A stretch of DNA of 64,000 bases from an uncultured Nitrososphaerota archaeon (GTDB lineage: Archaea > Thermoproteota > Nitrososphaeria > Nitrososphaerales > Gagatemarchaeaceae), in assembly GCA_963703285.1 (NCBI GenBank), contig OY969807.1, positions 1,824,001 through 1,888,000 of the forward strand, written 5' to 3'. The notes beneath the pieces were generated by a model. The model was not told where the DNA came from, searched no databases, and was given only the letters and a program-made list of their open reading frames with translations. Positions 915 to 63,744 of the stretch are shown in pieces (the first letter of the stretch is position 1; each line of letters starts with the position of its first letter). Made by a program: the position numbers and the translations under genes.

Positions 915-1913
915 ATGACCAAGATGATCGAGGCGGAGAACCTGACGAAGGTGTACAAGGGAAAGGTCAAGGCCGTCGACCATATCTCCTTCACAGTCGA
1001 GGAGGGAGAGATCTTCGGGTTCCTGGGGCCGAACGGCGCAGGCAAGACCACGACCATCAAGATGCTCAACACCCTGGCGACCATCACCGAGGGCAGGGCC
1101 AGCGTCGCCGGGCACGACGTCAGCAGGGAGCAGGGGGCCACCAGGGACAGCATCGGCGTGGTGCCCCAGGAGCTGACCGCCGACGACGAGCTGAACGGAG
1201 AGGAGAACCTGATGCTCGCGGCGAGGCTTCATCACGTCGGGAGAGATGCGGCGCGCCTGAGGACCCAGGAGCTCCTCAAGCTCGTCGACCTCGACCAGGC
1301 GGCCCGGCGGAAGGTGAAGACCTACTCTGGCGGCATGAGGAGGCGCCTGCAGCTAGCGATGGGGCTCGTCCACATGCCGAAGGTCCTCTTCCTCGACGAG
1401 CCCACCCTCGGGCTCGACATACAGACGAGGAAGAAGATGTGGGACTACATCTCCAGGCTCAATCGCGAGCGCGGGCTCACGGTGTTCATGACGACCCACT
1501 ACCTCGAGGAGGCGGACTCCCTCTGCAACAGGATAGCGATCATCGACCAGGGTACGATCAAGGTGTCGGGCTCGCCGGCGGAGCTCAAGGAGAAGGTCGG
1601 GGGAGACATCCTCACCCTCGAGCTCAGCGAGAACGCCCCCGACCTGACCGAGTTCTTCAGGTCGGTCCCCGAGGTTATCGAGGTCATAAAGTCGGACCAG
1701 ACTTACCGGATCAAGCTTCCGAAGACGGAGAAGGCCCTCCCGGCGATCGTCGAGGGCGTGGTCAAGAGGGACGTCCAGATCATCGAGATATCGTTCACCA
1801 AGCCCACCCTCGACCAGGTGTTCCTGGAGGTCACGGGCAAGTCGATGCGGGACGAGGACGCGTCTGAGAGCGACTCCCTGCTTCAGAACGTGATGATGGA
1901 GAGGGCGAGGTAG
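915..1913 (+). CDS. ABC-2 (DrrA-like) exporter ATP-binding subunit
   Basis: GPNGAGKTT Walker A, YSGGMRRR signature, LFLDEPT Walker B. Confidence 0.95.
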   Translation: MTKMIEAENLTKVYKGKVKAVDHISFTVEEGEIFGFLGPNGAGKTTTIKMLNTLATITEGRASVAGHDVSREQGATRDSIGVVPQELTADDELNGEENLMLAARLHHVGRDAARLRTQELLKLVDLDQAARRKVKTYSGGMRRRLQLAMGLVHMPKVLFLDEPTLGLDIQTRKKMWDYISRLNRERGLTVFMTTHYLEEADSLCNRIAIIDQGTIKVSGSPAELKEKVGGDILTLELSENAPDLTEFFRSVPEVIEVIKSDQTYRIKLPKTEKALPAIVEGVVKRDVQIIEISFTKPTLDQVFLEVTGKSMRDEDASESDSLLQNVMMERAR

Positions 1914-1919
1914 ACCGCG

Positions 1920-2783
1920 ATGTTCGACGAGACACTAGCGCTCACGACCAGGGCGCTCAAGAAGTGGATCAGGAATCCCGCAGCCGTCCTGCCCGCGCTC
2001 TTCACCTCTCTCTTCTACCTCGTCCTGTTTGGGAACTCCTTCAACCCGACCAACCTCTTCACCTCCGGGCTGAGCAGCAGCGGAATCCCTCCCTCGGTGG
2101 TAGCTCAGATCAAGGCGACCATCCTCCAGCAGACCTTCGGGGGCGCCGCGACCTACATCACCTACCTGACCGCCGGCGTCATATGCCTCATCCTCGTCTT
2201 CAACATGGCCTTCGGCGGCATCGACCTCGTCCTAGACAGGCAGCTGGGCTACCTCAACACCCTCCTCACCTCCCCGATACCGAGGGCGGCGATCTACTTC
2301 TCGGGGGTTCTCCAGAACCTAGTGAAGGTCATGTTCATGGCCCTGCTGACCTTCCTCATAGCGCTGGTGATTCCAAACGGGCTCGAGCTGCAGTCCGGGT
2401 TTGGTCCCCTCAACTTCATCGGCATCTTCGCCGCCTTCGCGCTCCTGGGATTCGGCCTGTCGTGCGTCTTCACTGCCCTCGCGCTCTCAGTCAGGAGCAT
2501 CGACTCCCTGGTCGCGATAGTCAACTTCCTGACGCTGCCGCTGATATTCATGAGCAACGCCCTCTTCCCGTCAGAGACGTTCCCGAGCTGGCTCAAGGCG
2601 ATAGCGAGCGCGAACCCGATATCAACGACCGACGAGGCGGCGAGGCTGCTCATAGTGAACGGGAGCCTGACCAGCGCGCAGATCTCGACCTTCGCTGGCG
2701 ACATGCTCTATCTTGCGGTCGTCGCGGTGGGGCTCACCGTAGTCGGCTACCTCGCCGCGAGAAAGGCGCTGAGTGCCGAGTGA
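1920..2783 (+). CDS. ABC-2 type permease
   Basis: About six hydrophobic helices, PSWLKAIASANP motif, directly follows the ATPase. Confidence 0.9.
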   Translation: MFDETLALTTRALKKWIRNPAAVLPALFTSLFYLVLFGNSFNPTNLFTSGLSSSGIPPSVVAQIKATILQQTFGGAATYITYLTAGVICLILVFNMAFGGIDLVLDRQLGYLNTLLTSPIPRAAIYFSGVLQNLVKVMFMALLTFLIALVIPNGLELQSGFGPLNFIGIFAAFALLGFGLSCVFTALALSVRSIDSLVAIVNFLTLPLIFMSNALFPSETFPSWLKAIASANPISTTDEAARLLIVNGSLTSAQISTFAGDMLYLAVVAVGLTVVGYLAARKALSAE

Positions 2784-2880
2784 GCGCGCTCACGTCATGA
2801 ACCTTGCCGCGCTCGAAGCCGCCGTAGGCGGTCTGACCTCCGGGCATCGAATAAATAGACCGCGAGCAGCGAAATTGCCC

Positions 2881-3903
2881 GTGCCCCAGAAGAAGAAGAT
2901 TGTAGCGACAGACATGGTGGTCCCCGAGCCGATCAAGAGGAGGGTGGAGTCATCGGCCGGAGGAAGCTACTCCCTGCGCCACATCGACAGCCTAGACGAC
3001 ACGGTGAAGAACGACGTCGAGGTGCTGGTGATGCTTCGAAGCGCCAGCGTGACGAAAGCTCTCTTCCGGGAGATGCCTAACGTCAGGCTGGTCCAGTCGA
3101 TGTCGGCGGGGGTGGATTTCATCGACTTCACGGCCGTCCCCCCGGACGTCACCGTCTGCTCTAACGCCGGCGCCTTCAAGGACCCCATAGCCGAGCACGT
3201 CTTCGCCATGGTCCTATGCTTCGCGAAGAACCTGTCCCGCAACCACGAGCGGCTGCGCCGGGGGCTCTTCGAGAGCTCCGCCGACGGGCTGTTCCTGGGG
3301 AACAAGACCATCGGGGTAGTCGGCGCCGGGGGCATCGGCCAGTCCGTGGCGAGGGTCGCGAGGGGCTTCAACATGAGGACGGTGGGGATCAACACGACAG
3401 GTCGCCCCGTCGAGGGTTTTGACGCCGTGTGGAAGATGGACCGGCTCGACGACCTCCTAAGGCAGGCGGACGTCGTCGTGATTTCGCTCCCGCTGACCGT
3501 ACGCACGAGGAACCTCATCGACGCCGGGAGGCTCTCCGCGATGAAGGAGGACTGTATCCTCGTCAACGTCGCCCGCGGGGCGATAATCGCCCAGGACGCC
3601 CTCTACTCGCACCTCAAGTCCCACCCCAGCTTCAGGGCCGGCATCGACGTCTGGTGGAGGTACCCGAAGGAGGGGGAGAAGTTCTCCCTCGACTTCCCGT
3701 TCTTCGACCTTCCAAACTTCCTCGCGTCGCCACACAACGCGGACGGTGTCCCCGAGGCGCTCCCCCTCGGCCAGGAACACGCGTTCCGAAACGTGATCGC
3801 GTACCTCGACGGAGGCGCGCTCGAGAGGAAGGTCGACAGGGGCGACTACCTCGGCCTGCCACCGCGGACGAGCGCCAGGGCTTCCAAATTCCGGAGGGTA
3901 TGA
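2881..3903 (+). CDS. D-isomer-specific 2-hydroxyacid dehydrogenase
   Basis: SAGVD, GAGGIG Rossmann motif, VNVARG, SPHNA. GTG start at 2881 inferred. Confidence 0.9.
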   Translation: MPQKKKIVATDMVVPEPIKRRVESSAGGSYSLRHIDSLDDTVKNDVEVLVMLRSASVTKALFREMPNVRLVQSMSAGVDFIDFTAVPPDVTVCSNAGAFKDPIAEHVFAMVLCFAKNLSRNHERLRRGLFESSADGLFLGNKTIGVVGAGGIGQSVARVARGFNMRTVGINTTGRPVEGFDAVWKMDRLDDLLRQADVVVISLPLTVRTRNLIDAGRLSAMKEDCILVNVARGAIIAQDALYSHLKSHPSFRAGIDVWWRYPKEGEKFSLDFPFFDLPNFLASPHNADGVPEALPLGQEHAFRNVIAYLDGGALERKVDRGDYLGLPPRTSARASKFRRV

Positions 3904-3909
3904 CCGGCG

Positions 3910-4383
3910 ATGGAGGAGGAGATGAACAGGCTCCTCGACCTGTTCAAGAAGGAGGGGGTGGAGTTCCAGCTCTACGAGCACGAGCCCGTCTACACGTCCG
4001 TGGAAGCCTCGAAGGTGAGGGGCGTGGAGCTTAGGTCCGGGGTGAAGGCCCTGGTGTTGAAGTCGGACGACGGGAACTACCTGCTGGCAGACCTCGCGGC
4101 CGACCGCAAGGCCGACATCAAGAAGCTGCAGAAGGTCGCAGGCGTCGGGAAGCTGCACTTCGCCTCGAGGGAGGAGGTCATCTCCGTCACGGGATGCGAG
4201 CCGGGGTCTGTCCACCCGTTCGGCGTCCTCTTCGGCCTCCCGACGTACCTCGATCCTTCCGTCCTCGAGAACGAGCACGTCAACTTCAACATCGGCCTGC
4301 TGACGAAGAGCGTCCGCATCCGCAGGGAGGACCTGATGAGGCTCCTGGGTGCCGTCCTGGCCGACTTCGCGAAGAGCGCCTAA
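3910..4383 (+). CDS. YbaK/ProX aminoacyl-tRNA editing domain protein
   Basis: HEPVYT, VKALVLK, GCEPGSVHPFG motifs. Confidence 0.9.
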   Translation: MEEEMNRLLDLFKKEGVEFQLYEHEPVYTSVEASKVRGVELRSGVKALVLKSDDGNYLLADLAADRKADIKKLQKVAGVGKLHFASREEVISVTGCEPGSVHPFGVLFGLPTYLDPSVLENEHVNFNIGLLTKSVRIRREDLMRLLGAVLADFAKSA

Positions 4384-4433
4384 CATAGCAAGAGCATTAA
4401 CCATCCGTTCTGGCCTCGGCGTCAGGCGTAAGA

Positions 4434-4880
4434 TTGGAGTCCAGGCCGTCCTATCGGATCAGGGAGTGCGTCGAGAAGGATTTAGTCGACGTCCTGAAGA
4501 TAGAGAACGAATCGTTCACGGACCCGTACGACATGGAGATCTTCTCGCAACTCCTCAGGTCGGAACCGGAGGGATTCTTAGTGGCCGATGGCGGCGGCAT
4601 ACTCGGATACGTCGCTGCCTCGGCGAGGTACGGGCTCATCCTCTCCCTTGCGATCTCCCCGAGCCACAGGAGGAAGGGAATTGGCGCGGCTCTCTTGGAC
4701 TCCGTGCTCCGCTACCTCCGGGGGCGCACGAGCAGGGTCACGTTGCAGGTCCGCGTCGGCAACTCGGCGGCGATAGCCCTCTACCGGCGATTCTCCTTCA
4801 GGGAAGAGGGAAGGCTGAGGAGATACTATCCCGACGGCGAGGACGCCCTCGTGATGTCCTCCGACCTCAGACGCAAGTGA
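4434..4880 (+). CDS. rimI: RimI/Ard1-like GNAT N-acetyltransferase
   Basis: RRKGIG acetyl-CoA loop, LQVRVGNSAAIALY, YYPDGEDA. Confidence 0.85.
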   Translation: MESRPSYRIRECVEKDLVDVLKIENESFTDPYDMEIFSQLLRSEPEGFLVADGGGILGYVAASARYGLILSLAISPSHRRKGIGAALLDSVLRYLRGRTSRVTLQVRVGNSAAIALYRRFSFREEGRLRRYYPDGEDALVMSSDLRRK

Positions 4881-4889
4881 GTTCTCTGC

Positions 4890-5153
4890 TCACGCGTCTG
4901 TGGACGCCGGGGGAGGTATGAGGTCAGGCGACTGGCCTGAAGTCTGCGTCCCAGACGTCGCGGGGTTTTCGTTCAGCTGTCTCTGGAGCCTCTTCGACTT
5001 GTTGTAGTAGTACCAGAACATGTAGAAGATCACTGTGGCGAAGATTATCTCGAAGATCGTGTCGACGAGTATAAGCGAGACGAAGAACGCCAGTACGACC
5101 AAAAGTACCGTCCTCATGGTGTCCATCAGCCCAGATGTGTTGCTCATTCCCAT
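4890..5153 (-). CDS. Small membrane protein, unknown function
   Basis: 87 aa, two hydrophobic segments followed by a basic tail. Confidence 0.6.
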   Translation of the reverse strand: MGMSNTSGLMDTMRTVLLVVLAFFVSLILVDTIFEIIFATVIFYMFWYYYNKSKRLQRQLNENPATSGTQTSGQSPDLIPPPASTDA

Positions 5154-5369
5154 GCCGATCCCTTGCCGTCCGCCGATGCTCCCTACTCCGTGTTAAGTCT
5201 TGGGGTTGGTCGTGCCTTCCACGCCGTACGACGCGAAGGGCCTCCTTACCTCCCCGATGAGGGACGAGGATTCTAGCCGCCATCCGCAAGGTCGCACATC
5301 ACCGAGGCCGAACGATACCCAGAAGCAACCCAAACTATTTACCACCCACATCGCGCAAGTCCCAACAGC

Positions 5370-6380
5370 TTGTCGAGCCCCTCGTCTCCCCCTCCAGCCT
5401 GGCTTGCGAAGTACGTCGAGGCGATAGACGCCCGGGTCGCGGAGGTCTTTCCCAAGGCAGACTCGACGTTGGAGCTCGCCGTGAAGGGGGCCCTCCTCGG
5501 AGGAAAGAGGATCAGGGCCGTGCTCGCCCTGCTCTGGTGTGAAGCCGTCTCGGGCGGATACGAGGACGCGTTGCCGGTGGCGGTAGCCTACGAGCTGGCC
5601 CACGCGGCGGCCCTCGTCCAGGACGACATCCTGGATGACTCGGGGTTCCGCCGGGGCGAAAAATCGATAGTAGGAAGGCACGGCCTGCGCCCCGCGATTC
5701 TGGCATCGAATATGCTGCTGGCGCAGGTCCCCAGAGAAATCGCCGAGTACGGGTCCGGAAGGTGGGGCGGGGCGACGCTCAAGAAACTCTTCGAACTGCT
5801 CGGCGATTCGTTCGGCGCGACCATCCTGGGAGAGTTTCTGGACCTCGAGATGGTCGAGAAGCAGTCCGTGAGCCAGGATGACTACGAGTACATGATAAGG
5901 AAGAAGACGGGCGCGCTCGTGGCTGCATCTTCGGCGAGCGGCGTCATCGTGGGCAGGGGGATGGACAGCGAGGCGACCGTGAGGACCGCGTACGAGTTCG
6001 GAGAGTGGCTGGGGATGGCGTATCAGGTCCACGACGACCTCCTCGACATAGTCGGGGACGAAGGAGTCCTCGGGAAGCCCGTCTTCGCCGACATCAGGGG
6101 CGGCAAGAGGAACATCCTGCTGATTCACGCGTCCGAGAGGGCCTCAGGGGAGGACCGCCGCTTCCTCGATGAGCTGCTCAGCAGGAGAGGGGAATTCGGC
6201 GAATCCGAGATCGCGAGGGTGAGAGGCCTGCTTTCCAAGGTCGGTTCGCTGGAGTACGCCGAGGGCGTGGCGGCTTCGTACGCTGGGAACGCCCGCGGAC
6301 TCCTCGAGACGCTGGACGCTGGGTCGGCGAAGGGGAAGCTTCTCGAGCTCTCGGACTACCTCGCTTCGAGGAAATACTGA
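5370..6380 (+). CDS. Polyprenyl (geranylgeranyl) diphosphate synthase
   Basis: GGKRIR, first DDxxD (QDDILDD..RRG), KT, second DDxxD (HDDLLD), GK. Confidence 0.93.
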   Translation: MSSPSSPPPAWLAKYVEAIDARVAEVFPKADSTLELAVKGALLGGKRIRAVLALLWCEAVSGGYEDALPVAVAYELAHAAALVQDDILDDSGFRRGEKSIVGRHGLRPAILASNMLLAQVPREIAEYGSGRWGGATLKKLFELLGDSFGATILGEFLDLEMVEKQSVSQDDYEYMIRKKTGALVAASSASGVIVGRGMDSEATVRTAYEFGEWLGMAYQVHDDLLDIVGDEGVLGKPVFADIRGGKRNILLIHASERASGEDRRFLDELLSRRGEFGESEIARVRGLLSKVGSLEYAEGVAASYAGNARGLLETLDAGSAKGKLLELSDYLASRKY

Positions 6381-6410
6381 ACCCCGAGCAGCTACGATTA
6401 TCTACAGGCC

Positions 6411-6704
6411 TTGGGCGCAGCATCCGGGTTGACACAGAGGGACGACGCCGGTCTTGTCTCGAGCCTGGAGCGAACCTCCCGGGCCCTCGAGATACTCACC
6501 TTCGCTCTCGTCATCCTCATCTCGCCCGTCTCCTTCGTGCTGGGCCTACCATTCGGCATCTCACCCGAGACGTGGCTCGCGCTCTGGCAGAAGTACGCGT
6601 TCTTCTTCGTGGTCTTCGCCATCGCCATCGCGCTGACCGGTTTTGCTGGTTCGTTCCAGTACCGCGTGCGGGCTAGGGCAATCCGCAGATCGACTCAGCG
6701 CTGA
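6411..6704 (+). CDS. Small two-TM membrane protein
   Basis: Two hydrophobic helices, fills the gap after the prenyl synthase. Confidence 0.55.
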   Translation: MGAASGLTQRDDAGLVSSLERTSRALEILTFALVILISPVSFVLGLPFGISPETWLALWQKYAFFFVVFAIAIALTGFAGSFQYRVRARAIRRSTQR

Positions 6705-6710
6705 AGCGGC

Positions 6711-7151
6711 TTACTTCCGGTGCACGACGATGTATGCGGGAACCGGCTTCGTCCCCTTGTAGGACGACCTCTCCAGCATCCTCTGGTAGGCCTCCTCCTC
6801 CAGCAGCGTCGGCTTGGGTTGGAAGTGGCCGCCCTGGTCGTCGTCCTGAACGTTGAAGCGGACGCGTATGGCGACGTCCTCGGCCGGGTTCGCAGTTTCG
6901 TAGTCCGGGTCCCACCTGACTTGGCCGTCGGGGAATTCCTCCGCGAAGCCCCTGAGGAACTCGGGGAGTTTCACCAACCAGATGCTGTTGGCCCTCACCT
7001 CCAGCCCGTCCTTCCAATAGACTGAGACAACCATGTTGTCCAGAGACCTGCTCGCAGCGAGCCTCTTGGCCGCGTCCTTGTCGACACCTATCGATATCAG
7101 GGACTTGTGCAGCCTCTCAATCTCCGCCGCGGAGTCGCCTTTCTTTGCCAA
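6711..7151 (-). CDS. Hypothetical protein
   Basis: 146 aa, genome-like codon usage, no competing real gene. Confidence 0.65.
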   Translation of the reverse strand: MAKKGDSAAEIERLHKSLISIGVDKDAAKRLAASRSLDNMVVSVYWKDGLEVRANSIWLVKLPEFLRGFAEEFPDGQVRWDPDYETANPAEDVAIRVRFNVQDDDQGGHFQPKPTLLEEEAYQRMLERSSYKGTKPVPAYIVVHRK

Positions 7152-7191
7152 GATTGCAGTAGCCAGAGCCAGGGGGACATAAATCAGTTAT

Positions 7192-7596
7192 CTATCCGTC
7201 GATCTGCGACTGGTCCTGCATCGGGCCGGCGTCCTCCCGGTGCTCCTTGTAGTAGGCCCATATCCTCTCCTGCTGTTGCCTTGCGTATTCCCTCTCCTTT
7301 TGTGTGAGAATAGGGTCGTTGGCCCTCTCGCCCGGCCTCCTCAGGTCGGCGGGAAGCCCCTCCCAACAGAAGAAGCCTCCCCCGGGGTATCCCGTGTCCT
7401 TGCGCACCACTATAGCCGCGAAACCAGGCGCACCGGCGAGGGACTCCGCCCTGTCTATCTCGCCGAGGACGCCCACGACCGTCCGACCCTCGCTCCCCCG
7501 CGCGAGGCCGAACCGGGCCATGAGGTAGCCGTAGGTCACCGTCCTGCGCGCGAGAGCGGCCCGCAACAACTCCCTCCGCATCTCGTCCCGGAGCAT
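7192..7596 (-). CDS. Hypothetical protein with a putative HTH-like N-terminus
   Basis: RTVTYGYLMARFGL...LGEID...AAIVVRKDTGYPGGGFF pattern. ATG at 7596. Confidence 0.65.
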   Translation of the reverse strand: MLRDEMRRELLRAALARRTVTYGYLMARFGLARGSEGRTVVGVLGEIDRAESLAGAPGFAAIVVRKDTGYPGGGFFCWEGLPADLRRPGERANDPILTQKEREYARQQQERIWAYYKEHREDAGPMQDQSQIDG

Positions 7597-7690
7597 CCTT
7601 CGTTCTTGTGACGCGAACCCTAAAACGGTTCCGAAACCGTCGCCAACCCACCGAAAGTTAGTTAATCCACCAGGGCAGGACGATAACCAA

Positions 7691-8365
7691 GTGCCTGTCA
7701 TCAGCATCGGGGAGCATCGCATCGAGTACTCTGTGAAGGAGGGAACCAGCAGGAGGTACACCTACTTCAGGTTCAGGGCCGACAGGACCCTCGAGATTGT
7801 GGTGCCCAGGGGCAGGAGGGTGGACATCGACTCCACGATAAGGAACAGGCAGACCTGGATAGTCAGGCAGTTCGAGGAGATGTCCCGGAGCAGGAGGATA
7901 CTCGCCGATGACGAGGTCATGTTCGACGGGGAGCACCTGAGGCTGGTCTTCGAGGAGAGCCAGGAGAGGGAGGAGCTCGTCCACGACCCCGTGAGAAAAG
8001 AGGTCATAGTCCGGTCGAGCGACAGGTCCAGGGTCAGGGAGCTCGTCAGGAGGTGGTTCCTGAGGGAGACATCGAGGTACGTGGTCCGGAAGCTCGGAGA
8101 GATCTCCGAAGCGCTCGAAGTGAAGTACCGCCGGGCCGACGTGAGGCAGATAAGGAACTGGGGCTACTGTACCAAGGACGGCCGCCTCTCGTTCAACTGG
8201 CAGCTGATAGCGCTCCCCGAGAGGCTACGGGAGTACATAATCCTGCACGAGCTCGCACACCTGTCGGAGTTCAACCATTCCCCCGCCTTCAAGGACAGGC
8301 TCGCCGCCTACTGCCCCGACTATCGGCAGAGGGAGAAGGAGCTCGACAGGATAGTCTCGCTCTGA
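7691..8365 (+). CDS. YgjP/DUF45 (M48-like) zinc metallohydrolase
   Basis: WGYC, LSFNWQL, YIILHELAHL (HExxH), NHSPAF. Confidence 0.9.
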   Translation: MPVISIGEHRIEYSVKEGTSRRYTYFRFRADRTLEIVVPRGRRVDIDSTIRNRQTWIVRQFEEMSRSRRILADDEVMFDGEHLRLVFEESQEREELVHDPVRKEVIVRSSDRSRVRELVRRWFLRETSRYVVRKLGEISEALEVKYRRADVRQIRNWGYCTKDGRLSFNWQLIALPERLREYIILHELAHLSEFNHSPAFKDRLAAYCPDYRQREKELDRIVSL

Positions 8366-55456: not shown

Positions 55457-56841
55457 ACGACGCCATCGTCGAGTACCTCTACGTCATAGCGGTCCTGTTC
55501 TTCGTGATCTCGCTCAAGTGGATGAGCGAGGTGAGGACCTCGCGGTACGGAAACTGGATAGCCGCCTCCGGGATGGCCGTCGCAATCGGGGGAACGCTCC
55601 TCGCCTATCAGGTCCAGAGGATAGACCTGCTGATAGTCGCGGTCGTCGTGGGCGTCATCATCGGGGCACCGATAGCCGTGAAGGTCCCCATGACGGCCGT
55701 CCCACAGCGGACCGCCGCGTCCCACGCCTTCGGCTCGCTGGCCGTCGCGCTGGTGGGAACGGCCGAGTACTACCAGAGGACGCCCGGCATCGACGTCTTC
55801 ACCCTGACCGTGCTGTGCGCCGAGATGATACTTGGGTACCTCACGTTCATGGGAAGCTGCATCGCCTTCGCGAAGCTCCAGGGGCTGATTCCCGGAAAAC
55901 CGTTCGTCTACGGCGGACGGAACTTCATCAGCCTCACGGTCCTCGGGGCCGCCGTCGCCCTCGCGATCTACCTCGTCGCCAACCCGGCCCAGTCCTTCGT
56001 CCTCCCCATCATGGCGGGCTTCGCAATCCTCTTCGGGTTCCTCCTCGTCATGGCGATAGGAGGGGCAGACATGCCCACGGTCATAGCGATCCTGAACTCC
56101 TACGCGGGGATGTCAGCGGCCGCGCTCGGCTTTGTGCTGAACAACCAGGTCCTCATCGTCGCGGGAGCGCTCGACGGATCGTCGGGCTTCATCCTCGCGA
56201 TGATAATGAGCAAGGCGATGAACCGCTCCTTCACCAACGTGCTCTTCGGCGGCGTGGGCGCGGCCGCCGTCTCGGCGCCTGGGGGGCCGTCGGTCGCCGG
56301 CGGACGCACTGCGCAAGCGTTCACGGTCGACGACGTCGCCACCATCCTGCAGGACGCGAGGTCTGTCGTCTTCGTCCCCGGCTACGGGATGGCCGTCGCC
56401 CAGGCCCAGCACGTCGTCAAGGAGGTCGCCGAGATCCTGCAGTCCCGCGGAGTCGACGTAAAGTATGGGATCCACCCGGTAGCCGGCAGGATGCCCGGTC
56501 ACATGAACGTCCTCCTGGCGGACGCCGACGTCTCCTACGACCAGCTGTGGGAGATGGACCGGATCAACCCGCTCTTCCCCGAGACCGACGTGGCCATCGT
56601 AGTGGGAGCGAACGACGTGACGAACCCCGCAGCGAGGACAAGGCCGGACTCGCCCCTCTACGGGATGCCGATAATGAACGTCGACAAGGCAAAGACCGTG
56701 GTGTTCATCAAGCGGTCCATGAACCCGGGATTCGCCGGGGTCGAGAACGAACTGTTCTACCTGCCGAACACGATGATGGTCTTCGGAGACGCGAAGAAGG
56801 TTCTATCCGACCTGGTCGCCTCCCTCAAGAGACAGGGCTAG
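55453..56841 (+). CDS. pntB: NAD(P) transhydrogenase beta subunit
   Basis: IGGADMP, LNSYAG, PGYGMAVAQAQH, HPVAGRMPGHMNVLLA, GANDVTNPAA. Confidence 0.97.
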   Translation: MNDAIVEYLYVIAVLFFVISLKWMSEVRTSRYGNWIAASGMAVAIGGTLLAYQVQRIDLLIVAVVVGVIIGAPIAVKVPMTAVPQRTAASHAFGSLAVALVGTAEYYQRTPGIDVFTLTVLCAEMILGYLTFMGSCIAFAKLQGLIPGKPFVYGGRNFISLTVLGAAVALAIYLVANPAQSFVLPIMAGFAILFGFLLVMAIGGADMPTVIAILNSYAGMSAAALGFVLNNQVLIVAGALDGSSGFILAMIMSKAMNRSFTNVLFGGVGAAAVSAPGGPSVAGGRTAQAFTVDDVATILQDARSVVFVPGYGMAVAQAQHVVKEVAEILQSRGVDVKYGIHPVAGRMPGHMNVLLADADVSYDQLWEMDRINPLFPETDVAIVVGANDVTNPAARTRPDSPLYGMPIMNVDKAKTVVFIKRSMNPGFAGVENELFYLPNTMMVFGDAKKVLSDLVASLKRQG

Positions 56842-56982
56842 AGTCTCATTGGCAAGCGAGCTTTCTGCTCGCCCTTGCGCGATAGGAGCCGGGTTCTCCA
56901 CGGGTTTCGCTTTTATGGTTTTGTAAAGGTTTATAAGTACCATCTTGTAAGCAAGAACTTCCTTTCGGATTTGCATTAGAAT

Positions 56983-57921
56983 ATGTCTCGAAACCCGAAC
57001 TTCTCGCGTCTGATGAAACTGGAGAAAGCTCTAGACAAATGTCCCAGATGCGCGCACAGCCCCATGATAATCGACTCGTCTGGGGGAGAGCTATTCTGCA
57101 GCAACTGCGGCTTCGTGCTCAAGGAGAAGATGGAGGAGGCGGGTCCCGAGTGGCGGTCCTTCTCCAACGAGGAGAAAGACGAGAAGAGCAGGGTCGGGCT
57201 CCCGACCTCGGTGGCCATATCAGACATGGGCCTTGCGACAGTCATCGGCGGTGAGAACAGGGACGCTTCGGGGAGGACGCTCTCGGGCTCGATGCGGTCG
57301 ACCGTAGAGAGGCTGAGGACGTGGGATCGGCGCAGCCAGGCACACGAGTCTGCCGACAGAAACCTCAGACAGGCGTTCAGCGAACTTCACAGATACGCCG
57401 ACAAGCTCACCGTCAACGAGGCGGTGGTCGAGAAGGCGGCCTACATTTACAGGAAGGCCTTCGAGCGCGGGCTGGTGAGGGGAAGGTCGATAACGGCAAT
57501 CACCGTCGCGTCTCTCTACGCGGCGTGCAGGGACATGGAGATACCTCGGACCCTGAAGGACATGGCGGCTGTCAGCAACATAAAGAAGAAGGACATCGCA
57601 CGATCCTACAGGCTTCTCTTCAGGGAGCTCGACATGCACATGCCTGTCGTTGACCCCGCGCGGTGCATCTCCAAGATTGCATCCAGGGCGGGCATGAAGG
57701 AGAAGACCCAGAGGAGGGCTCTCGAGATACTCACCATGGCAGGGCCGATGCGCGTCTCCGCAGGCAAGGACCCGATGGGTTTCGCCGCATCAGCGCTCTA
57801 CGTCGCATGCACACTGGAGAACGACGGCAAGACTCAGCGCGATATCGCCGAGGCCGCGGGCGTCACCGAGGTCACGATCAGGAACAGGTACAAGGGCCTG
57901 AGGGCCGCCCTGGGCTTCTAG
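56983..57921 (+). CDS. tfb: Transcription initiation factor B (paralogue 2)
   Basis: Zn ribbon, GPEWRSF, GVTEVTIRNRYK. Confidence 0.96.
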   Translation: MSRNPNFSRLMKLEKALDKCPRCAHSPMIIDSSGGELFCSNCGFVLKEKMEEAGPEWRSFSNEEKDEKSRVGLPTSVAISDMGLATVIGGENRDASGRTLSGSMRSTVERLRTWDRRSQAHESADRNLRQAFSELHRYADKLTVNEAVVEKAAYIYRKAFERGLVRGRSITAITVASLYAACRDMEIPRTLKDMAAVSNIKKKDIARSYRLLFRELDMHMPVVDPARCISKIASRAGMKEKTQRRALEILTMAGPMRVSAGKDPMGFAASALYVACTLENDGKTQRDIAEAAGVTEVTIRNRYKGLRAALGF

Positions 57922-58031
57922 GGTCATCCATCCGCCGCGCACCTCGAACAGCACTCGCTAAGGCTCGATCCCCGCTAATCGGCAGTATACGGCGCCAAGT
58001 CCGGGAATCGGCTAGAGCGCAACATATATTA

Positions 58032-58048
58032 AATGAATAATTCATTCA
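58032..58048. promoter_or_regulatory. Putative TetR operator AATGAA-TAA-TTCATT next to a TATA-like TATTAAA
   Basis: Inverted repeat just upstream of the TetR start. Confidence 0.55.
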
Positions 58049-58070
58049 CGTAATCTGTAGGGCCAAAGAT

Positions 58071-58206
58071 ATGCCACGCAAGAAGATGGACCAAGAGCTG
58101 AGGGACGAGAAGTCCGAGCTGATCCTCGACGCTGCTAGGAAGGTCTTCGCGAGGAAGGGCAGCGCGGCGACCATGGCCGAGGTGGCTGAGGAGGCGGGGG
58201 TCAGCC
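58071..58206 (+). pseudogene. TetR/AcrR regulator, 5' part (interrupted by the group II intron)
   Basis: ILDAARKVFARKG..ATMAEVAEEAGVS, first half of the HTH. Confidence 0.92.
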
Positions 58207-58306
58207 CTGAGGTAAGAGTGCGTTGCCACGCTAGAATTGCTTCAGGCAGGAAACACGCACCCTCCCTCCCAAACCCGGCGTGATACTTTCGCATCACCGG
58301 GCTTTC
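58207..58306 (-). ncRNA. Group II intron domains V and VI
   Basis: DV AGCCCGGTGATGC-GAAA-GTATCACGCCGGGTT. DVI GGGTGCGT/ACGCACTC stem with the branch A 7 nt from the end. Confidence 0.92.
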
Positions 58307-58360
58307 ACCCCTACGTCCTCCGTCCTCTTCTTGTGCATTGGATGGATGGGTTTCGGCTGC

Positions 58361-60112
58361 CTAGTTTCTAGGTAGCCTACTGTGGCATGTCGCGCACAAT
58401 GTCTGAAGATTTTCGACCCGGTGCACGACCTGCGGGTTGAAGACCATTCCTTTGGGGACAGGTTCCCTATGGTGCGCCTGAAGTCTTTCCCGACTGCCGC
58501 ACAGAGTACACCTCCATCCATCCCTCTCAAACGCCAGAAAGCGGTTGGAGAGATAGGTTTCATCGTACTCGGGCGCAATCGGGTGGATGTTGGGCACATC
58601 AACGATTGGGTCGTCGTTTTCCTCTGATACGCTGGTTGCGGTGTGGTTCTGGCGGATGTATGGATTGCTGATTGACCTGTATTTCCAAACAAGTCTGTGA
58701 TTCAGTGAGGTGTGCATGCTCTTGTTCGAGTTCATCCTAAAGAGTTCGGTCTTGACCGGCCCTCTTTGGATGACTACACTACCGTTTCTGAGCACGACGG
58801 AGAGGCATTTCTGGACGCTTATCTGGTATTTCCTACAATACCATTGATAGAACAGGCGCTGTGCCAGAAAGTCTCCCGTAGCGAATTGCTGATGTGAGTT
58901 GACGGTTCTGTAGTAGTTTGCCCATCCTCTCAAGACTCTGTTCATGGCTGCAATCTTCATCTGAGGGTCGTCGCTCTTCGCGCTCGGCCCTAGCATGGCT
59001 TGCAGTTTGTACTTGAGTCGGAGTAGGTTCTTTTGTGTTGGTCGTATCCTGACGCACATGCCGTGGTCTAGCCTTACTCGCTGGATGCGAAATCCGAGGA
59101 AATCGAATCCAGCTTCCAGATGCACGACACGCGTCTTTTCTGCGGACAGGCTCAGCCTCAGCTTCTCCGTGAAGAAGCTGCGTATGTTGTCCATGATTGC
59201 GGTGGCCTGCTCCTGAGTGCCTTTCACGCTCAGGATGAAGTCGTCCGCATACCTGAACAGCACGCAGCTTGCCTGCCCTTTCTCACGTCGCAGTCTTCTC
59301 TGCTTGTAGGTGAGTTTGCCCCAGCTCTCGTACCAATGCTGGTCAAACTCGTTGAGGTAGATGTTGGCTAGGAGTGGCGAAAGGACTCCGCCTTGCGGGG
59401 TTCCTTTCTTGGTCTGAGTTCGGATGCCCTTCTCGATGACGGGTGCCTTGAGGAATCGGCGGATCAGCCACAGGACTTTTGGGTCGGCTATCCTTCGTTC
59501 TATAGCTTCCATCAGTATCCAGTGGTCGATGTTGTCGAAGCACCCTTCGATGTCTCCCTCGATGACCCATTCGTACAGACGCTTGCTGTCCCCGTACTGA
59601 TACATGGGCAATACGCACTCCAGCGTGCTTCGCTCAGGTCGGAAGCCGTTGGAATTGGGCAGGAAGTCGGCCTCAAAGATTGGTTCGAGAACCATCTTCA
59701 AGACCATCTGAACTGTCCTATCCTTCAGCGTTGGAATGCCTATTGGTCGTTTCCCTCCGCTGGCCTTCGGAATGTACTTCCTCAGGACAGGCGAGGGGTG
59801 GTAGGTCTTGTGTTTCAGTTCTGTCCGCAGTTCCTCGACAAATCTGGCCCTAGCAGACGGTTCGTGCAGGTCTGCCCCGCACACTCCGTCTACGCCTGAG
59901 GTCTTCGCGCCAGTGTTGTCTAGGACTGCTTCCAGAGCCGATTTGAGCCACTCTCTTCTCCAGAGTAGCGGGTGTAGGTTGTGGAACCGTTTGTTCGGTT
60001 GTCTTGTTGCTGCTATGGCGAGCCCACTCTGGATATGGAGAATGACTCTGCCTTCGTCCTTGCGGACTACTGGATTGGGTGATTGCTCACCCAACTGATT
60101 GTTTGAGTCCAT
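58361..60112 (-). CDS. ltrA: Group II intron reverse transcriptase/maturase with HNH endonuclease
   Basis: RT0 GAKTSGVDG, RPIGIP, GFRP, DIEGCFDNI, GTPQGGVLSPLLANIYL, RYADD, FLGF, LRGWANYY, C-terminal CxxC..HH..N..LCxxCH. AGGAGGTGA ribosome-binding site before ATG 60112. Confidence 0.97.
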   Translation of the reverse strand: MDSNNQLGEQSPNPVVRKDEGRVILHIQSGLAIAATRQPNKRFHNLHPLLWRREWLKSALEAVLDNTGAKTSGVDGVCGADLHEPSARARFVEELRTELKHKTYHPSPVLRKYIPKASGGKRPIGIPTLKDRTVQMVLKMVLEPIFEADFLPNSNGFRPERSTLECVLPMYQYGDSKRLYEWVIEGDIEGCFDNIDHWILMEAIERRIADPKVLWLIRRFLKAPVIEKGIRTQTKKGTPQGGVLSPLLANIYLNEFDQHWYESWGKLTYKQRRLRREKGQASCVLFRYADDFILSVKGTQEQATAIMDNIRSFFTEKLRLSLSAEKTRVVHLEAGFDFLGFRIQRVRLDHGMCVRIRPTQKNLLRLKYKLQAMLGPSAKSDDPQMKIAAMNRVLRGWANYYRTVNSHQQFATGDFLAQRLFYQWYCRKYQISVQKCLSVVLRNGSVVIQRGPVKTELFRMNSNKSMHTSLNHRLVWKYRSISNPYIRQNHTATSVSEENDDPIVDVPNIHPIAPEYDETYLSNRFLAFERDGWRCTLCGSRERLQAHHREPVPKGMVFNPQVVHRVENLQTLCATCHSRLPRN

Positions 60113-60757
60113 TCTCTCACCTCCTGTTGTGTTTCGTGGACTGAATCCATCCTTCTGCACAGTTCAGACTTCGGATTTCAGGCTAGAGTCCTTCCCCACA
60201 GGTCGGTAATTGGCCGACGTTCAGGGTACTATGACTCCTCGGAGCCAACCCGGTCAAGTCGGACGCAGCCGTCCTATCCTCTCGCCCTTTATCGACGGGA
60301 GTCAGACCGGGTTGGGTCTCACGTTCTGTAAGGAGCACTTCTGCGGACGGATTTAGGCACCCACCAGTTACCGAGAGAGCTCCAGCTCGCTGGCCGGTTC
60401 TCGCCTGCCTGAAGGAGGGGATTTGCCACACTTCGTCCTTGAGTAAAGTGTGGTAGCTCTCTATACCATGCGCGCTTCGTCCTATCCTAGCGTCTTCGCA
60501 TGGCGCATGCGCTACCTGTTGTGGATTCCTTAACGTTGCCGTGTCCGTCCTAAGGTCGCCGTCTCGGGAACCTAGGCTGTTCCCTTATCGGCTGTCTATG
60601 TCTGGGGCTAGCCCCATGCTGGACTCTGCTCAGAGCCCAACAAGCCAGACGACTTTCACCTTCGGGAGTCCTGACCTTGCGGTCGAGGACGCCCAGCCTT
60701 ACCTACTGTAGTGTGGGATGGAGATGACTGAGCATGCTGGTGATGAGGTGTTCCAGC

Positions 60758-61324
60758 TTATGGTACTGCGCTCGCGCAGTACGAGGTAGACCCATACGGA
60801 ACGGATGTTTCATTGGAGCCAGTGACGGTTACGATGAGGGTATTGTTGGAGCTGTCGAGTTTCTGTGCTGTGGCGCAAAGAGTCAGGCCGCCGGTAACTA
60901 CTGATGTCATGGTAACGTTCTTGGCGAAGAAACCGCTACCAGTGTAGCTCCCACTGACATTCGTAGGATTGGTCTGGCCGAGGTTGTTGTATCCCAGATA
61001 CGTCAACTTCCACGGACCAGTATAGTTTACGGAAACGATGAAAGTGTAGTTGTAGGTCGCAAGACAATCACCGCCCGACTGATACCCCGAGCACGAGCTA
61101 GAGATCGTCGTCGAGGTCGTTTGCGACTGGGTGGTAAGAGTTTGACTGGTATTGACCGGCAGAGTAGTGGTCGATGATAAGTTGGAAGAAGTCGATGGAC
61201 TGGAAGAATGGGAAGTATTCGACTGTGACGTGAGTACAATGACTCCTGTCGCTCCGACCAGGATGACCACGACTGAAACAATGGCAATGATTGCTGTTCC
61301 AATTCCTCTTCTGGAAGTCTTCAT
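60758..61324 (-). CDS. Intron cargo: membrane-anchored Ser/Thr-rich surface protein with a class III (pilin-like) signal
   Basis: 188 aa: MKTSRRG/IGTAII.. hydrophobic helix, S/T linker, beta-rich domain with 4 Cys and several N-x-S/T sites. Confidence 0.85.
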   Translation of the reverse strand: MKTSRRGIGTAIIAIVSVVVILVGATGVIVLTSQSNTSHSSSPSTSSNLSSTTTLPVNTSQTLTTQSQTTSTTISSSCSGYQSGGDCLATYNYTFIVSVNYTGPWKLTYLGYNNLGQTNPTNVSGSYTGSGFFAKNVTMTSVVTGGLTLCATAQKLDSSNNTLIVTVTGSNETSVPYGSTSYCASAVP

Positions 61325-61520
61325 GTCGTGTCTGTGTTTGATGTGGTCGTGCGTCATTAATACCTTTGTCCGAATGGCGCTACTTTGCATGGAATAGTTG
61401 TGGTAGGTAGGGGAATATAGTCCTACGGTTTAGGACGGCTGTTCTGATGTTTGACTACAGTTCTTCGGGCATTGCTCCTTACAGCAGAGAGGTAGCAGGC
61501 TACCTCTTTTCGTGACGCGC

Positions 61521-62005
61521 AGGGGCTCGCTTACAGGTACTTCTCGAGCAAGGATGAGATTGTCGCAACCCTGGTCAGGAGGATGATCCAATCGAGAGGC
61601 AAGCTAACCTCGATGGTCCGGGAGATGCCGGGAACCCCAGGAGCGCGTCTCTTCAAGGTCGTATCGACGATGGTCGACAACAGGCGGGAGCGGCCTGAGT
61701 ACCACCAGATGATGTACCAGGGGATGGCCGACGAGAACTTGTCGCAGGAGCTGCGCGATGCCATAAGCGAGCAGAGGAGAGCCGTCAACGAGATAGTGCG
61801 GGGTCTCATCGTCGAGGGTCAGGCGACGGGTGAGGTCGCGGGGGACGACCCGGATCAGCTGGTCACGGCTGTTATGGCGTGTCTCGACGGCCTCTCGAGG
61901 AGGGTGTTGACGATGCCTCACGGCGAGTCCGGGGAGAAGTTGCCGCCCCCCGGGATAATCCTGAGGATGCTCAGGCCGGACGTGGGGAGGGTGAGCCTGG
62001 GTTGA
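61521..62005 (+). pseudogene. TetR/AcrR regulator, 3' part
   Basis: QGLAYRYFSSKDEI second half of the HTH, GQATGEV. Joined gene is 206 aa. Confidence 0.92.
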
Positions 62006-63051
62006 AGCTGAAGGGCGTCTGTTACGATGTCGGAGCTGTTATGGGCTTCAATTGGCGTCCAGTCTTCGACCCGAAGGTTGTACGCCGGGAGCTGGAGGTC
62101 ATCAAGAACGACCTGCATTGCAACGCGGTGAGCATCAGCGCCCTGGATGTTGGTCGGATTGTGACCGCCGCAACAGCCGCGCTCGAGGAGGGGCTCGAGG
62201 TCTGGCTCTCGCCTCTGCTGTGGGACAAGAGCGAGGATGAGACCGTCGCGTACTTGGCCAAGGCGGCCGGGCGGCTGGAGGCTCTCCGCAAGCGGTGGCC
62301 CGACAAGGTGGTGCTGAGCGTCGCCTCAGAGTCCACGCTGTTCATGCAGGGGATACTCGAGGGGAAGAACATCATCCAGCGGCTCGGAAACCCAAAGTTC
62401 AGAGCGAGAATCATGGCCGGCGAGCACAACGGGCCGCTCAACGCGTTCCTCGGCAAGGCCGTGGCTGCAGTCAGGAAGGAGTTCAAGGGCAAGCTGACCT
62501 ACCACTCCCTCATCTGGGAGAAGGTCGACTGGAGCCTCTTCGACTACGTCGGCGTGGACCACTACCGGGCCAAGGACATCGAAGACAAGTACGTCGAGAT
62601 GCTGAAGCCGCTCTTCGACAGCGGCAAGCCCGTGGTGGTCACGGAGTTCGGGTATGGGACCTACCAGAGCGACGGGAAGCTCGCCCAGGTCCTGCTGGGA
62701 GGAGGGGACGTCGACTTCAAGTCGCAGTTCTTCCACGCCCTACCGGTCGTGGGAAGGTTCGTCCGTCCCAAGGTGCGGGTCATCCACCCGCGCGACGAGG
62801 CCTGGCAGGCGCGCAAGGTCGTCGAGACCCTGGAGATTCTCGACGACGCGGGCGTGGACGGAGCCTTCGTGTCGCAGTTCGTGTCCCAGATCAATCCCTT
62901 CGATGAGGACCCGAGGTACGACCTGGACTTGGCAGGAAGCACCCTCGTCAAGAGCTTCGAAGGGGGAAGGAGGGGCACCACCTATCCAGATATGCCGTGG
63001 GAGCCGAAGGAGTCCTTCAGGGCCGTGGCCGACTATTACGCCACCCACTAG
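62002..63051 (+). CDS. Putative TIM-barrel glycoside-hydrolase-like protein
   Basis: KGVCYDVG, DLHCNAV, VASE, GVDHY, PVVVTEFG, WEPKESF. TTGA overlap with the tetR stop. Confidence 0.75.
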   Translation: MKLKGVCYDVGAVMGFNWRPVFDPKVVRRELEVIKNDLHCNAVSISALDVGRIVTAATAALEEGLEVWLSPLLWDKSEDETVAYLAKAAGRLEALRKRWPDKVVLSVASESTLFMQGILEGKNIIQRLGNPKFRARIMAGEHNGPLNAFLGKAVAAVRKEFKGKLTYHSLIWEKVDWSLFDYVGVDHYRAKDIEDKYVEMLKPLFDSGKPVVVTEFGYGTYQSDGKLAQVLLGGGDVDFKSQFFHALPVVGRFVRPKVRVIHPRDEAWQARKVVETLEILDDAGVDGAFVSQFVSQINPFDEDPRYDLDLAGSTLVKSFEGGRRGTTYPDMPWEPKESFRAVADYYATH

Positions 63052-63273
63052 CAATGGCGGCACAGGAAACGAGGCTCTCCATAAGCTGGAACAGGAAGCC
63101 ACTAGGACCGACAGCAATCTGGCAATAGCCCGCATCATTCAACGAGAGAGACGGCATCACCGGGGGTTTCAAGACGACGTTTCCTTGCAGTCCAGTCGTC
63201 CACTCCCCCCGCTTTGCTGGAGTGTGCAGCCTTTAGAGGGTAATCTGGCTAGCGGAACATTGTTCTGTACCCG

Positions 63274-63744
63274 TCAGTCACCGACCGGGGGGACGTATTC
63301 TTCCTCAGCACGGGACTTGTCCTGGAGATGCTCGAGCTCAGAATAGAAGTCCTTGGCGATTCGGAATGCCGCGTCGCTCTCGCGCATAAGGACCCGATGG
63401 AAGGTGGAGAACCTCTGATTGGGGGGCGTCACCTTCTCCGCGGGCGATAGCATCGAGAGGAACATGTCCCTCCTCTGCCTGTACAGGGCGATCTTCGCCG
63501 CGCACTCGTAATCGATTCGAGCCAGGATCTTGTCTCCAGAGGCTCTCGCCTCGTCGGCGGTCCTCTTGAGGTCCTCGGGCTCCCCCAGCTGCGCGACCTG
63601 CTCCCGGGGGTTGAGGAGGAGAAAGTACTCCATCGCGTCATGGAGGGCCATGCCGTTGGCAACCAACGCCTCCAGGGACGGGATTGGTTGTTGGTCCTGT
63701 GGGTCACCGGCCGCAATCTCACTCTCCCTCAGCTCTTCCGGCAT
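63274..63744 (-). CDS. Hypothetical protein
   Basis: Acidic helical ORF with genome-like codon usage. Confidence 0.55.
   Translation of the reverse strand: MPEELRESEIAAGDPQDQQPIPSLEALVANGMALHDAMEYFLLLNPREQVAQLGEPEDLKRTADEARASGDKILARIDYECAAKIALYRQRRDMFLSMLSPAEKVTPPNQRFSTFHRVLMRESDAAFRIAKDFYSELEHLQDKSRAEEEYVPPVGD

Follow-up and report, generated by a model that had tools for sequence, protein, structure and literature searches.

Group II introns are described as starting with 5′-GUGYG and ending with AY-3′, and in the accessible text of that review the GU-AY ends are noted as a parallel to the GU-AG ends of nuclear introns (PMC4424553). The last intron base, γ′, pairs with γ, the first base of the linker that joins domain II to domain III (J2/3), and the available portions of two reports establish the pair at exactly these positions (PMC6224600, PMC4238363). 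In P.li.LSUI2, γ is A420, the first base of the J2/3 trinucleotide A420-G421-A422 (PMC6224600). γ is said to be a purine, A-U and G-C pairs occurring in nature with roughly equal frequency, and mutation of the G-C γ-γ′ pair of the Sinorhizobium meliloti intron RmInt1 impairs the second splicing step (PMC4238363). Here we analyze a group II intron of 3314 nucleotides (nt) located on the minus strand (61520..58207), antisense within a TetR gene, in a 64,000-nt stretch of the genome of an uncultured soil archaeon of the Nitrososphaerota (contig OY969807.1; hereafter the window, whose numbering is used throughout). We consider it likely that this intron is a recently mobile retroelement with a IIB-like RNA and a reverse transcriptase (RT)/maturase/HNH protein, that its true termini are 5′-GCGCG and CAG-3′, and that its γ-γ′ pair is C-G.

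The window intron resembles the canonical bacterial IIB introns whose intron-encoded proteins (IEPs) contain an endonuclease (En) domain, since both have six domains, an AGC triad, a bulged A, exon-binding sites EBS1 and EBS2, a 3-nt J2/3 and an RT-X-HNH protein in domain IV. It differs from them by its GCGCG start, its AG end, a pyrimidine γ, an IIA-type δ and an additional open reading frame (ORF) in domain I. RmInt1 is also mobile with a non-consensus 3′ dinucleotide (CC). However, RmInt1 deviates at the penultimate base and has a purine γ and a pyrimidine γ′, whereas the window intron keeps the penultimate A and has the pair reversed (PMC4238363, accessible text). The mitochondrial cox1 group II introns of the annelid Travisia are likewise reported to start with 5′-GCGCG, but they end in AY, are degenerate and organellar, and the available part of the report describes no J2/3 change (PMC8924214). 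The RNA features of the window intron and the gene that it interrupts are located as follows.

58207..61520, minus strand: whole group II intron (GCGCG...CAG), found as two 100% identical copies with different flanks; its removal restores the TetR frame
61516..61520, minus strand: 5′ end GCGCG (consensus GUGYG), with C at position 2
60242..60320, minus strand: domain II, from RNAalifold with compensatory changes
60239..60241, minus strand: J2/3, CGA, with γ = C 60241
60185..60238, minus strand: domain III, from RNAalifold; the corresponding part of the related locus L010 matches RF01998 weakly
58271..58304, minus strand: domain V with the AGC triad, from the Rfam alignment
58207..58268, minus strand: domain VI, with bulged A 58213 (-7), terminal AG 58208-58207 and γ′ = G 58207
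58071..58206, plus strand: first part of the TetR-family gene, 45 codons and 1 base long, which the antisense intron interrupts
61521..62005, plus strand: second part of the TetR-family gene, which joins 58071-58206 when the intron is removed

Read on the minus strand, the intron retains G1, G3, Y4 and G5 of the GUGYG consensus and departs from it at position 2. Its 3′ end CUUACCUCAG (...CUCUUACCUCAG, finishing at 58207) is AG in place of AY, with the penultimate A retained. Domains V-VI matched the Rfam model RF00029 at 58306-58207 (minus strand) with 57.1 bits, the gathering score being 40. In this alignment the final 'Au' of the model lies opposite the AG of the intron and the A at -7 is bulged; the catalytic triad of domain V and the bulged adenosine of domain VI are thus both present. 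RNAalifold, run on 11 family members for domains II and III, closed domain II at columns 9-87 and 10-86 and opened domain III at columns 91-150, leaving exactly three unpaired J2/3 columns, and 19 of the 36 pairs showed compensatory changes. The window intron gave no match at E≤1 to the Rfam D1-D4 families (clan CL00102), and the related intron L010a matched RF01998 weakly (18.4 bits, gathering score 35). The minus-strand reading, RF00029 and RNAalifold confirm the GCGCG and CUUACCUCAG ends, the A at -7 and the J2/3 CGA (60241-60239) of the original prediction.

A protein search returned many IEP relatives at 52-92% identity, the closest of them labelled Nitrososphaerota and Bathyarchaeia, and the DNA loci of relatives, from other archaeal assemblies, were retrieved with an alignment of 41 IEPs (A1). 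In the IEP tree all 18 rows were retained, L016 filling just 15% of the columns with its frameshifted IEP. The GCGCG family (11 rows) is monophyletic with support of 100/100, and so is the CAG clade within it (4 rows, 100/100). The CAG clade unites the window intron with L016 and the two introns of locus L010 (L010a and L010b); these have IEPs 77-81% identical to that of the window and all read GCGCG...CUUACCUCAG. The six introns of the sister clade (L011, L090, L091, L092, L094 and L096; IEPs 57-64% identical) read GCGCG...UACUCUAC or UACCCUAC. The IEP of L093 is 55% identical to the window IEP. Outgroup introns, with IEPs 33-38% identical, start with GUGCG; one of them, L097, has GUGCGUCACGAAG at the position aligned to GCGCG.

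C60241, the first base of J2/3, and G58207, the last base of the intron, are Watson-Crick complementary, and the two positions covary among the related introns. J2/3 CGA goes with a terminal G in the window intron (L001), L010a, L010b and L016, and a J2/3 C together with a terminal G is also counted for L093 and a relic. The six introns of the sister clade combine J2/3 GCA with a C at the end. In the outgroups, J2/3 AGA goes with a terminal U (A-U in L013, L015 and L017) and a GGA-like J2/3 with a terminal C (G-C in L014, L099 and L098). The base that opens J2/3 and the final base of the intron are therefore C-G, G-C or A-U in 16/16 introns read, and the related-intron alignment bears out the C-G covariation that had been claimed for γ-γ′. 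We infer C-G pairing from these sequences, and infer splicing of the intron as well. The window intron is probably functional, as a natural variant with a pyrimidine γ and a purine γ′.

Several points weigh against this reading. One or two evolutionary events underlie the covariation, L093 is not placed by the IEP tree, and the GCA of the sister clade lacks the middle G conserved in other group II introns, its domain V triad being unchanged; the alignment shows a J2/3 linker that is unusually plastic in the GCGCG family. The J2/3 C and the terminal G could then be independent, unpaired clade markers, with the 3′ splice site set by δ-δ′ pairing to the 3′ exon and by the distance from the branch A alone. 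Since the CAG clade and its sister differ by fixed changes at 22 of 662 aligned columns, some coincidence is possible; just one or two independent changes are involved, and the sister clade changed J2/3 position 2 as well. However, just 2 of the 662 columns, the γ column among them, have C throughout the four CAG-clade introns and G throughout the six introns of the sister clade, and the chance of the right pattern falling at γ is about 2 in 662. Moreover, a Watson-Crick pair is kept in all 16 introns with three pair types and both G/C orientations, and γ-γ′ pairing had already been established at exactly these positions (PMC6224600, PMC4238363, accessible text). We therefore consider independent markers unlikely and retain the C-G pair.

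The rarity of such an end was surveyed with a covariance model of domains V-VI over 100 other loci, which gave 94 matches, 92 of them full length. An AG end was found in none of these 92 other full-length group II introns, whose 3′ ends were AC (69), AU (6), CC (4), GC (4), UC (3), AA (3), UA (1), UG (1) and GA (1). In a full-text literature search, covering few subscription papers and with the intron database outside its scope, neither GC...AG group II introns nor the GCGCG family were found described; a preprint on archaeal group II introns covers, in its accessible part, the proteins and not the RNA ends.

The boundaries of the intron were determined from its copies and from the interrupted gene. 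The source genome is archaeal, a single 2.25-Mb contig with a TFB gene at 56983-57921, and holds a second copy at G000:C1:2039889-2043202 that is 100% identical across all 3314 nt and has unrelated flanks. On the 5′ side the flanks of the intron copies diverge right up to GCGCG, and on the 3′ side a G follows CAG in all three copies of the source genome, the third being a relic. Joining 58071-58206 to 61521-62005 restored the TetR frame and gave ...EAGVSQGLAYRYF..., and 3/3 uninterrupted TetR homologs in another genome of the same order read EAGVSQGLAYRYF or EAGISQGLAYRYF. Because the joined exons match these homologs, the intron is exactly 61520..58207 or the equivalent unit one G over. Boundaries displaced by one or two bases the other way (UGCGCG...CUCA and CUGCGCG...CCUC) were rejected, as they give VSP in place of the conserved VSQ. 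The insertion is precise, without target duplication and present in several copies, as expected of a group II retroelement.

Contigs from public DNA runs have the same letters at both termini, with zero differences, and end at the intron boundaries as a repeat should; these contigs may derive from the same sample as the genome assembly. Four DNA runs over 56500-63500 yielded just contigs. None of these linked the two sides of the intron, so that an empty-site allele was not seen, and no sequence piece spanned either boundary by at least 31 letters on both sides. An error of sequencing or assembly at the termini, for which no supporting point was found, is extremely improbable, given that L010, L016, L093 and the source-genome relic have the same ends and the public contigs agree. 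The terminal G, which the original prediction suggested to be real, is indeed real and is conserved in the window clade, as is the J2/3 C.

Exon recognition provides a further register for the boundaries. The elements concerned are listed below.

60506..60512, minus strand: EBS2, GCGCAUG; the homologous position pairs with the intron-binding site IBS2 in L011, L010a, L010b and L016
60435..60441, minus strand: δ (C 60441), then EBS1, AAGGAC (60440-60435); the δ column is complementary to the first base of the 3′ exon
Second, sense copy in an ArdC-like gene: predicted exon junction, ...GUGUACUA joined to GACAGG...

In L011, GCGCG is immediately preceded by IBS2 CUACGGC and IBS1 GAGAUC, which pair without mismatch to EBS2 GCCGUAG and EBS1 GAUCUC (7+6 bp). 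L010b pairs GGCCUAC with GUAGGCC and CUCGCUG with CAGUGAG (7+7), L010a pairs CAGGGA with UCCCUG and, with one mismatch, GGCCUC with GAGACC (6 + 5/6), and in L093 CGAUUGU pairs with EBS1 ACAAUCG over 7 bp. GCGCG stands immediately after IBS1 in 11 related introns. EBS2 of the window intron pairs 7/7 with CAUGCGU upstream of the second copy and 5/7 at the window site. Its EBS1 pairs just 4/6 with each exon in the source genome, which counts against the reading, and splicing from them may therefore be inefficient. With EBS2 at 5/7 and EBS1 at 4/6, the insertion in the TetR gene looks like an off-target event. An earlier assignment of EBS1, UCAAGG, matched neither exon, and AAGGAC was adopted once the δ column had been found.

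This column emerged from an unbiased scan of a 507-column domain I alignment of 10 introns for positions complementary to the first base of the 3′ exon. In 10/10 introns (8 Watson-Crick, 2 G.U) exon +1 can pair with the base immediately 5′ of EBS1, and this column alone among the 507 reached 8 or more of 10. The δ-δ′ register places the 3′ splice site after CAG and excludes CGCGU...CAGG. Boundaries one base over (61519..58206) fit the empty site equally well, G being both base 1 of the intron and the base after it, and a G follows CAG in L010a as it does in the three source-genome copies. However, the base after CAG is C in L010b and L016 and A in L093, and the shift would lose G1, move the branch A to -8, break the end pair of EBS1-IBS1 in L011 (G opposite G) and break the δ-δ′ pairs. 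The EBS1-IBS1 and δ-δ′ registers thus dispose of the one-base-shifted boundary (58206-61519) named as an alternative in the original prediction, and we regard it as highly improbable. As a separate observation, 3′-exon recognition looks IIA-like (δ-δ′, 10/10) in introns that otherwise look IIB-like: the IIB traits EBS2 and 3-nt J2/3 are present, and exon +1 is recognized in the IIA way, by the base adjoining EBS1.

The two identical copies, together with an intact IEP reading frame, indicate recent movement of the intron. The second copy lies in sense orientation near the end of a 286-aa ArdC-like ORF (ArdcN, 23.9 bits, cut-off 22.6). L010, from a Nitrososphaerota assembly, holds two family introns (1705-4640 and 5019-7952), both in sense and ~380 nt apart, in one TFB-like gene. 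Their removal restores the TFB-like frame and the 15-residue zinc ribbon spacing, and the product aligns to the window TFB without gaps at both junctions. That the intron may be active is argued from recent mobility and in-frame host genes alone.

The non-consensus ends might also reflect decay in dead copies of an element that has lost both splicing and mobility. The antisense orientation of the window copy in its host gene puts it under no requirement to splice, frameshifts and stops interrupt the IEP of L016 (3989-5745), an intron with intact RNA ends and J2/3, and the third copy in the source genome is a relic. However, two 3314-nt copies are 100% identical at different sites, the IEP of the window intron is intact, and the same ends are kept across introns whose IEPs are just 55-81% identical, including the two that must both be removed from a TFB-like ORF. 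Decay is therefore very unlikely. Of the intron, the relic itself, at about G000:C1:838022-839321 (L006 1458-2758), still has its 5′ end, a portion of domain I, domains V-VI and a cargo ORF that has diverged. Its interior consists of unrelated sequence that replaces the intron core, with a small membrane ORF on the other strand. It occupies the homologous site in a decayed paralog of the ArdC-like gene that holds the second full copy.

We propose that the excised intron RNA would reverse-splice into DNA, guided by base pairs that the 5′ exon forms with EBS2 and EBS1, and the first base of the 3′ exon with δ, just 5′ of EBS1. In the second splicing step, Watson-Crick pairing to C 60241, at the start of J2/3, would position the last base, G 58207, a reversal of the usual purine-pyrimidine γ-γ′ pair. 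G1 and the penultimate A are retained, and the C at position 2 would be an older, family-wide trait that is tolerated. The window copy would represent an off-target insertion. The TetR gene is presumably inactivated by it and, because the intron is antisense, is beyond repair by splicing of its own transcript.

The ends had also been called spliceosome-like, which holds for the letters and not for the mechanism. Spliceosomal GC-AG introns are like the window intron in their terminal dinucleotides and in the bulged branch A that lies a few bases upstream. They differ in that the terminal G of the window intron would be read by a Watson-Crick partner in J2/3, a group II mechanism, and in that its GC and AG arose separately; the accessible text of PMC4424553 states that no equivalent of γ-γ′ has been reported in the spliceosome. 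Since the sister clade is GC...AC, the GC and AG deviations are independent and uncoupled, and the likeness to the spliceosome is therefore superficial. Judged from the distribution of the ends, the 5′ GC is older than the 3′ AG. Three textbook constants, GUGYG, AY and a purine γ (PMC4238363, PMC4424553, in their accessible parts), are broken at once, and the GCGCG family is still mobile. The family adds introns of Nitrososphaerota and Bathyarchaeia, groups barely described so far. A bolder proposal, which we consider unlikely, is that this archaeal lineage is a living group II ribozyme with an AG 3′ splice site, whose active site would accept a terminal G once γ has changed, and whose domain I loop would be a cargo bay spreading small surface-protein genes. 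If this were true, and if the terminal G also contacted G1 as in the spliceosomal P complex, the clade would be a natural model for AG recognition from a group II ancestor, archaeal and not organellar.

In L093, J2/3 is CGU. Its domain VI is normal and finishes in ...UUACUCUUC; after it comes a 48-nt duplicate of this domain, missing the bulged A and finishing in ...CUCUCCAG (5360-5407). The host frame is open with either candidate 3′ end. An exhaustive protein search yielded an uninterrupted homolog of the host protein (P0173), reading ...DESIVLKLLRELKDKY..., and removal of the insert at ...CCAG gives ...SIV joined to LKLLRELKDK, which matches P0173; the insert must therefore end at CCAG, after the extension. 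At this position the γ C pairs with G and the δ U with the exon A. An end at the first domain VI, which was rejected, would put C opposite C and give a U.G wobble. GUGCG, two bases upstream, was also rejected as the 5′ end, EBS1 pairing with CGAUUGU, which ends at GCGCG. In the accessible text of the sources, class B introns of the B.c.I4 type, the domain VII introns of Bacillus, have a 3′ extension too (PMC4424553, PMC4024640), and the splice end of L093 lies ~48 nt past domain VI, after a second hairpin. Unlike theirs, the extension of L093 duplicates domain VI minus its bulged A, and the window intron has no extension.

The protein-coding parts of the window intron are the following.

58361..60112, minus strand: IEP of 583 aa (RT, maturase X and HNH endonuclease) in domain IV; Pfam RVT_1 1.2e-39, GIIM 2.3e-10 and HNH 4.3e-05
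60712..61454, minus strand: large insert within a hairpin of domain I, in its terminal loop; the hairpin arms are 61461-61455 and 60711-60705
60758..61324, minus strand: cargo ORF of 188 aa, with an N-terminal membrane helix, a Ser/Thr-rich linker and a Cys-containing beta domain

The IEP contains YADD, and its RT and maturase lie in domain IV, as in group II retroelements. Its closest solved chain is 6me0_C (E 5.4e-56), which we take to belong to a Thermosynechococcus IIB intron. In the first L010 intron, ~360 extra nt separate the IEP stop from domain V. With a single IEP as query, no close IEP relatives were found in the genome contigs. No close relative was present in 300 other genomes of the same class, which gave one unrelated intron (G054), or in 400 other genomes of the same phylum; the genomes holding L010, L016 and L011 contained no further copies, and the best match in viral contigs was 40% identical. 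In contigs of the same soil study (runs X2-X4), variants of window positions 59970-60340 are 90-95% identical to the intron; related introns therefore coexist in those samples. L011 has, at about position 356, a further intron-like 5′ end, GCGCGUCUCGACGAAC..., upstream on the same contig.

The window intron is ~740 nt longer than L010a. The domain I insert is absent from L010a, where the loop is GAAA, and from L011, and is of other size and content in L010b and L016. Its cargo ORF has 50 metagenomic homologs, none of them named, with a conserved C-terminal domain of ~110 aa containing four Cys, and the protein is modelled as a membrane helix followed by a disordered linker and then a beta sandwich. 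The protein matched no Pfam family above its cut-off and gave no match in the PDB at E≤0.001 (Foldseek). The relic copy holds a homolog that is 34% identical. From its sequence content the domain I loop looks like a cargo site of the group II intron: at the same spot of domain I, other ORFs that share this build are present in L016 (2744-3388) and L010b (5178-5465).

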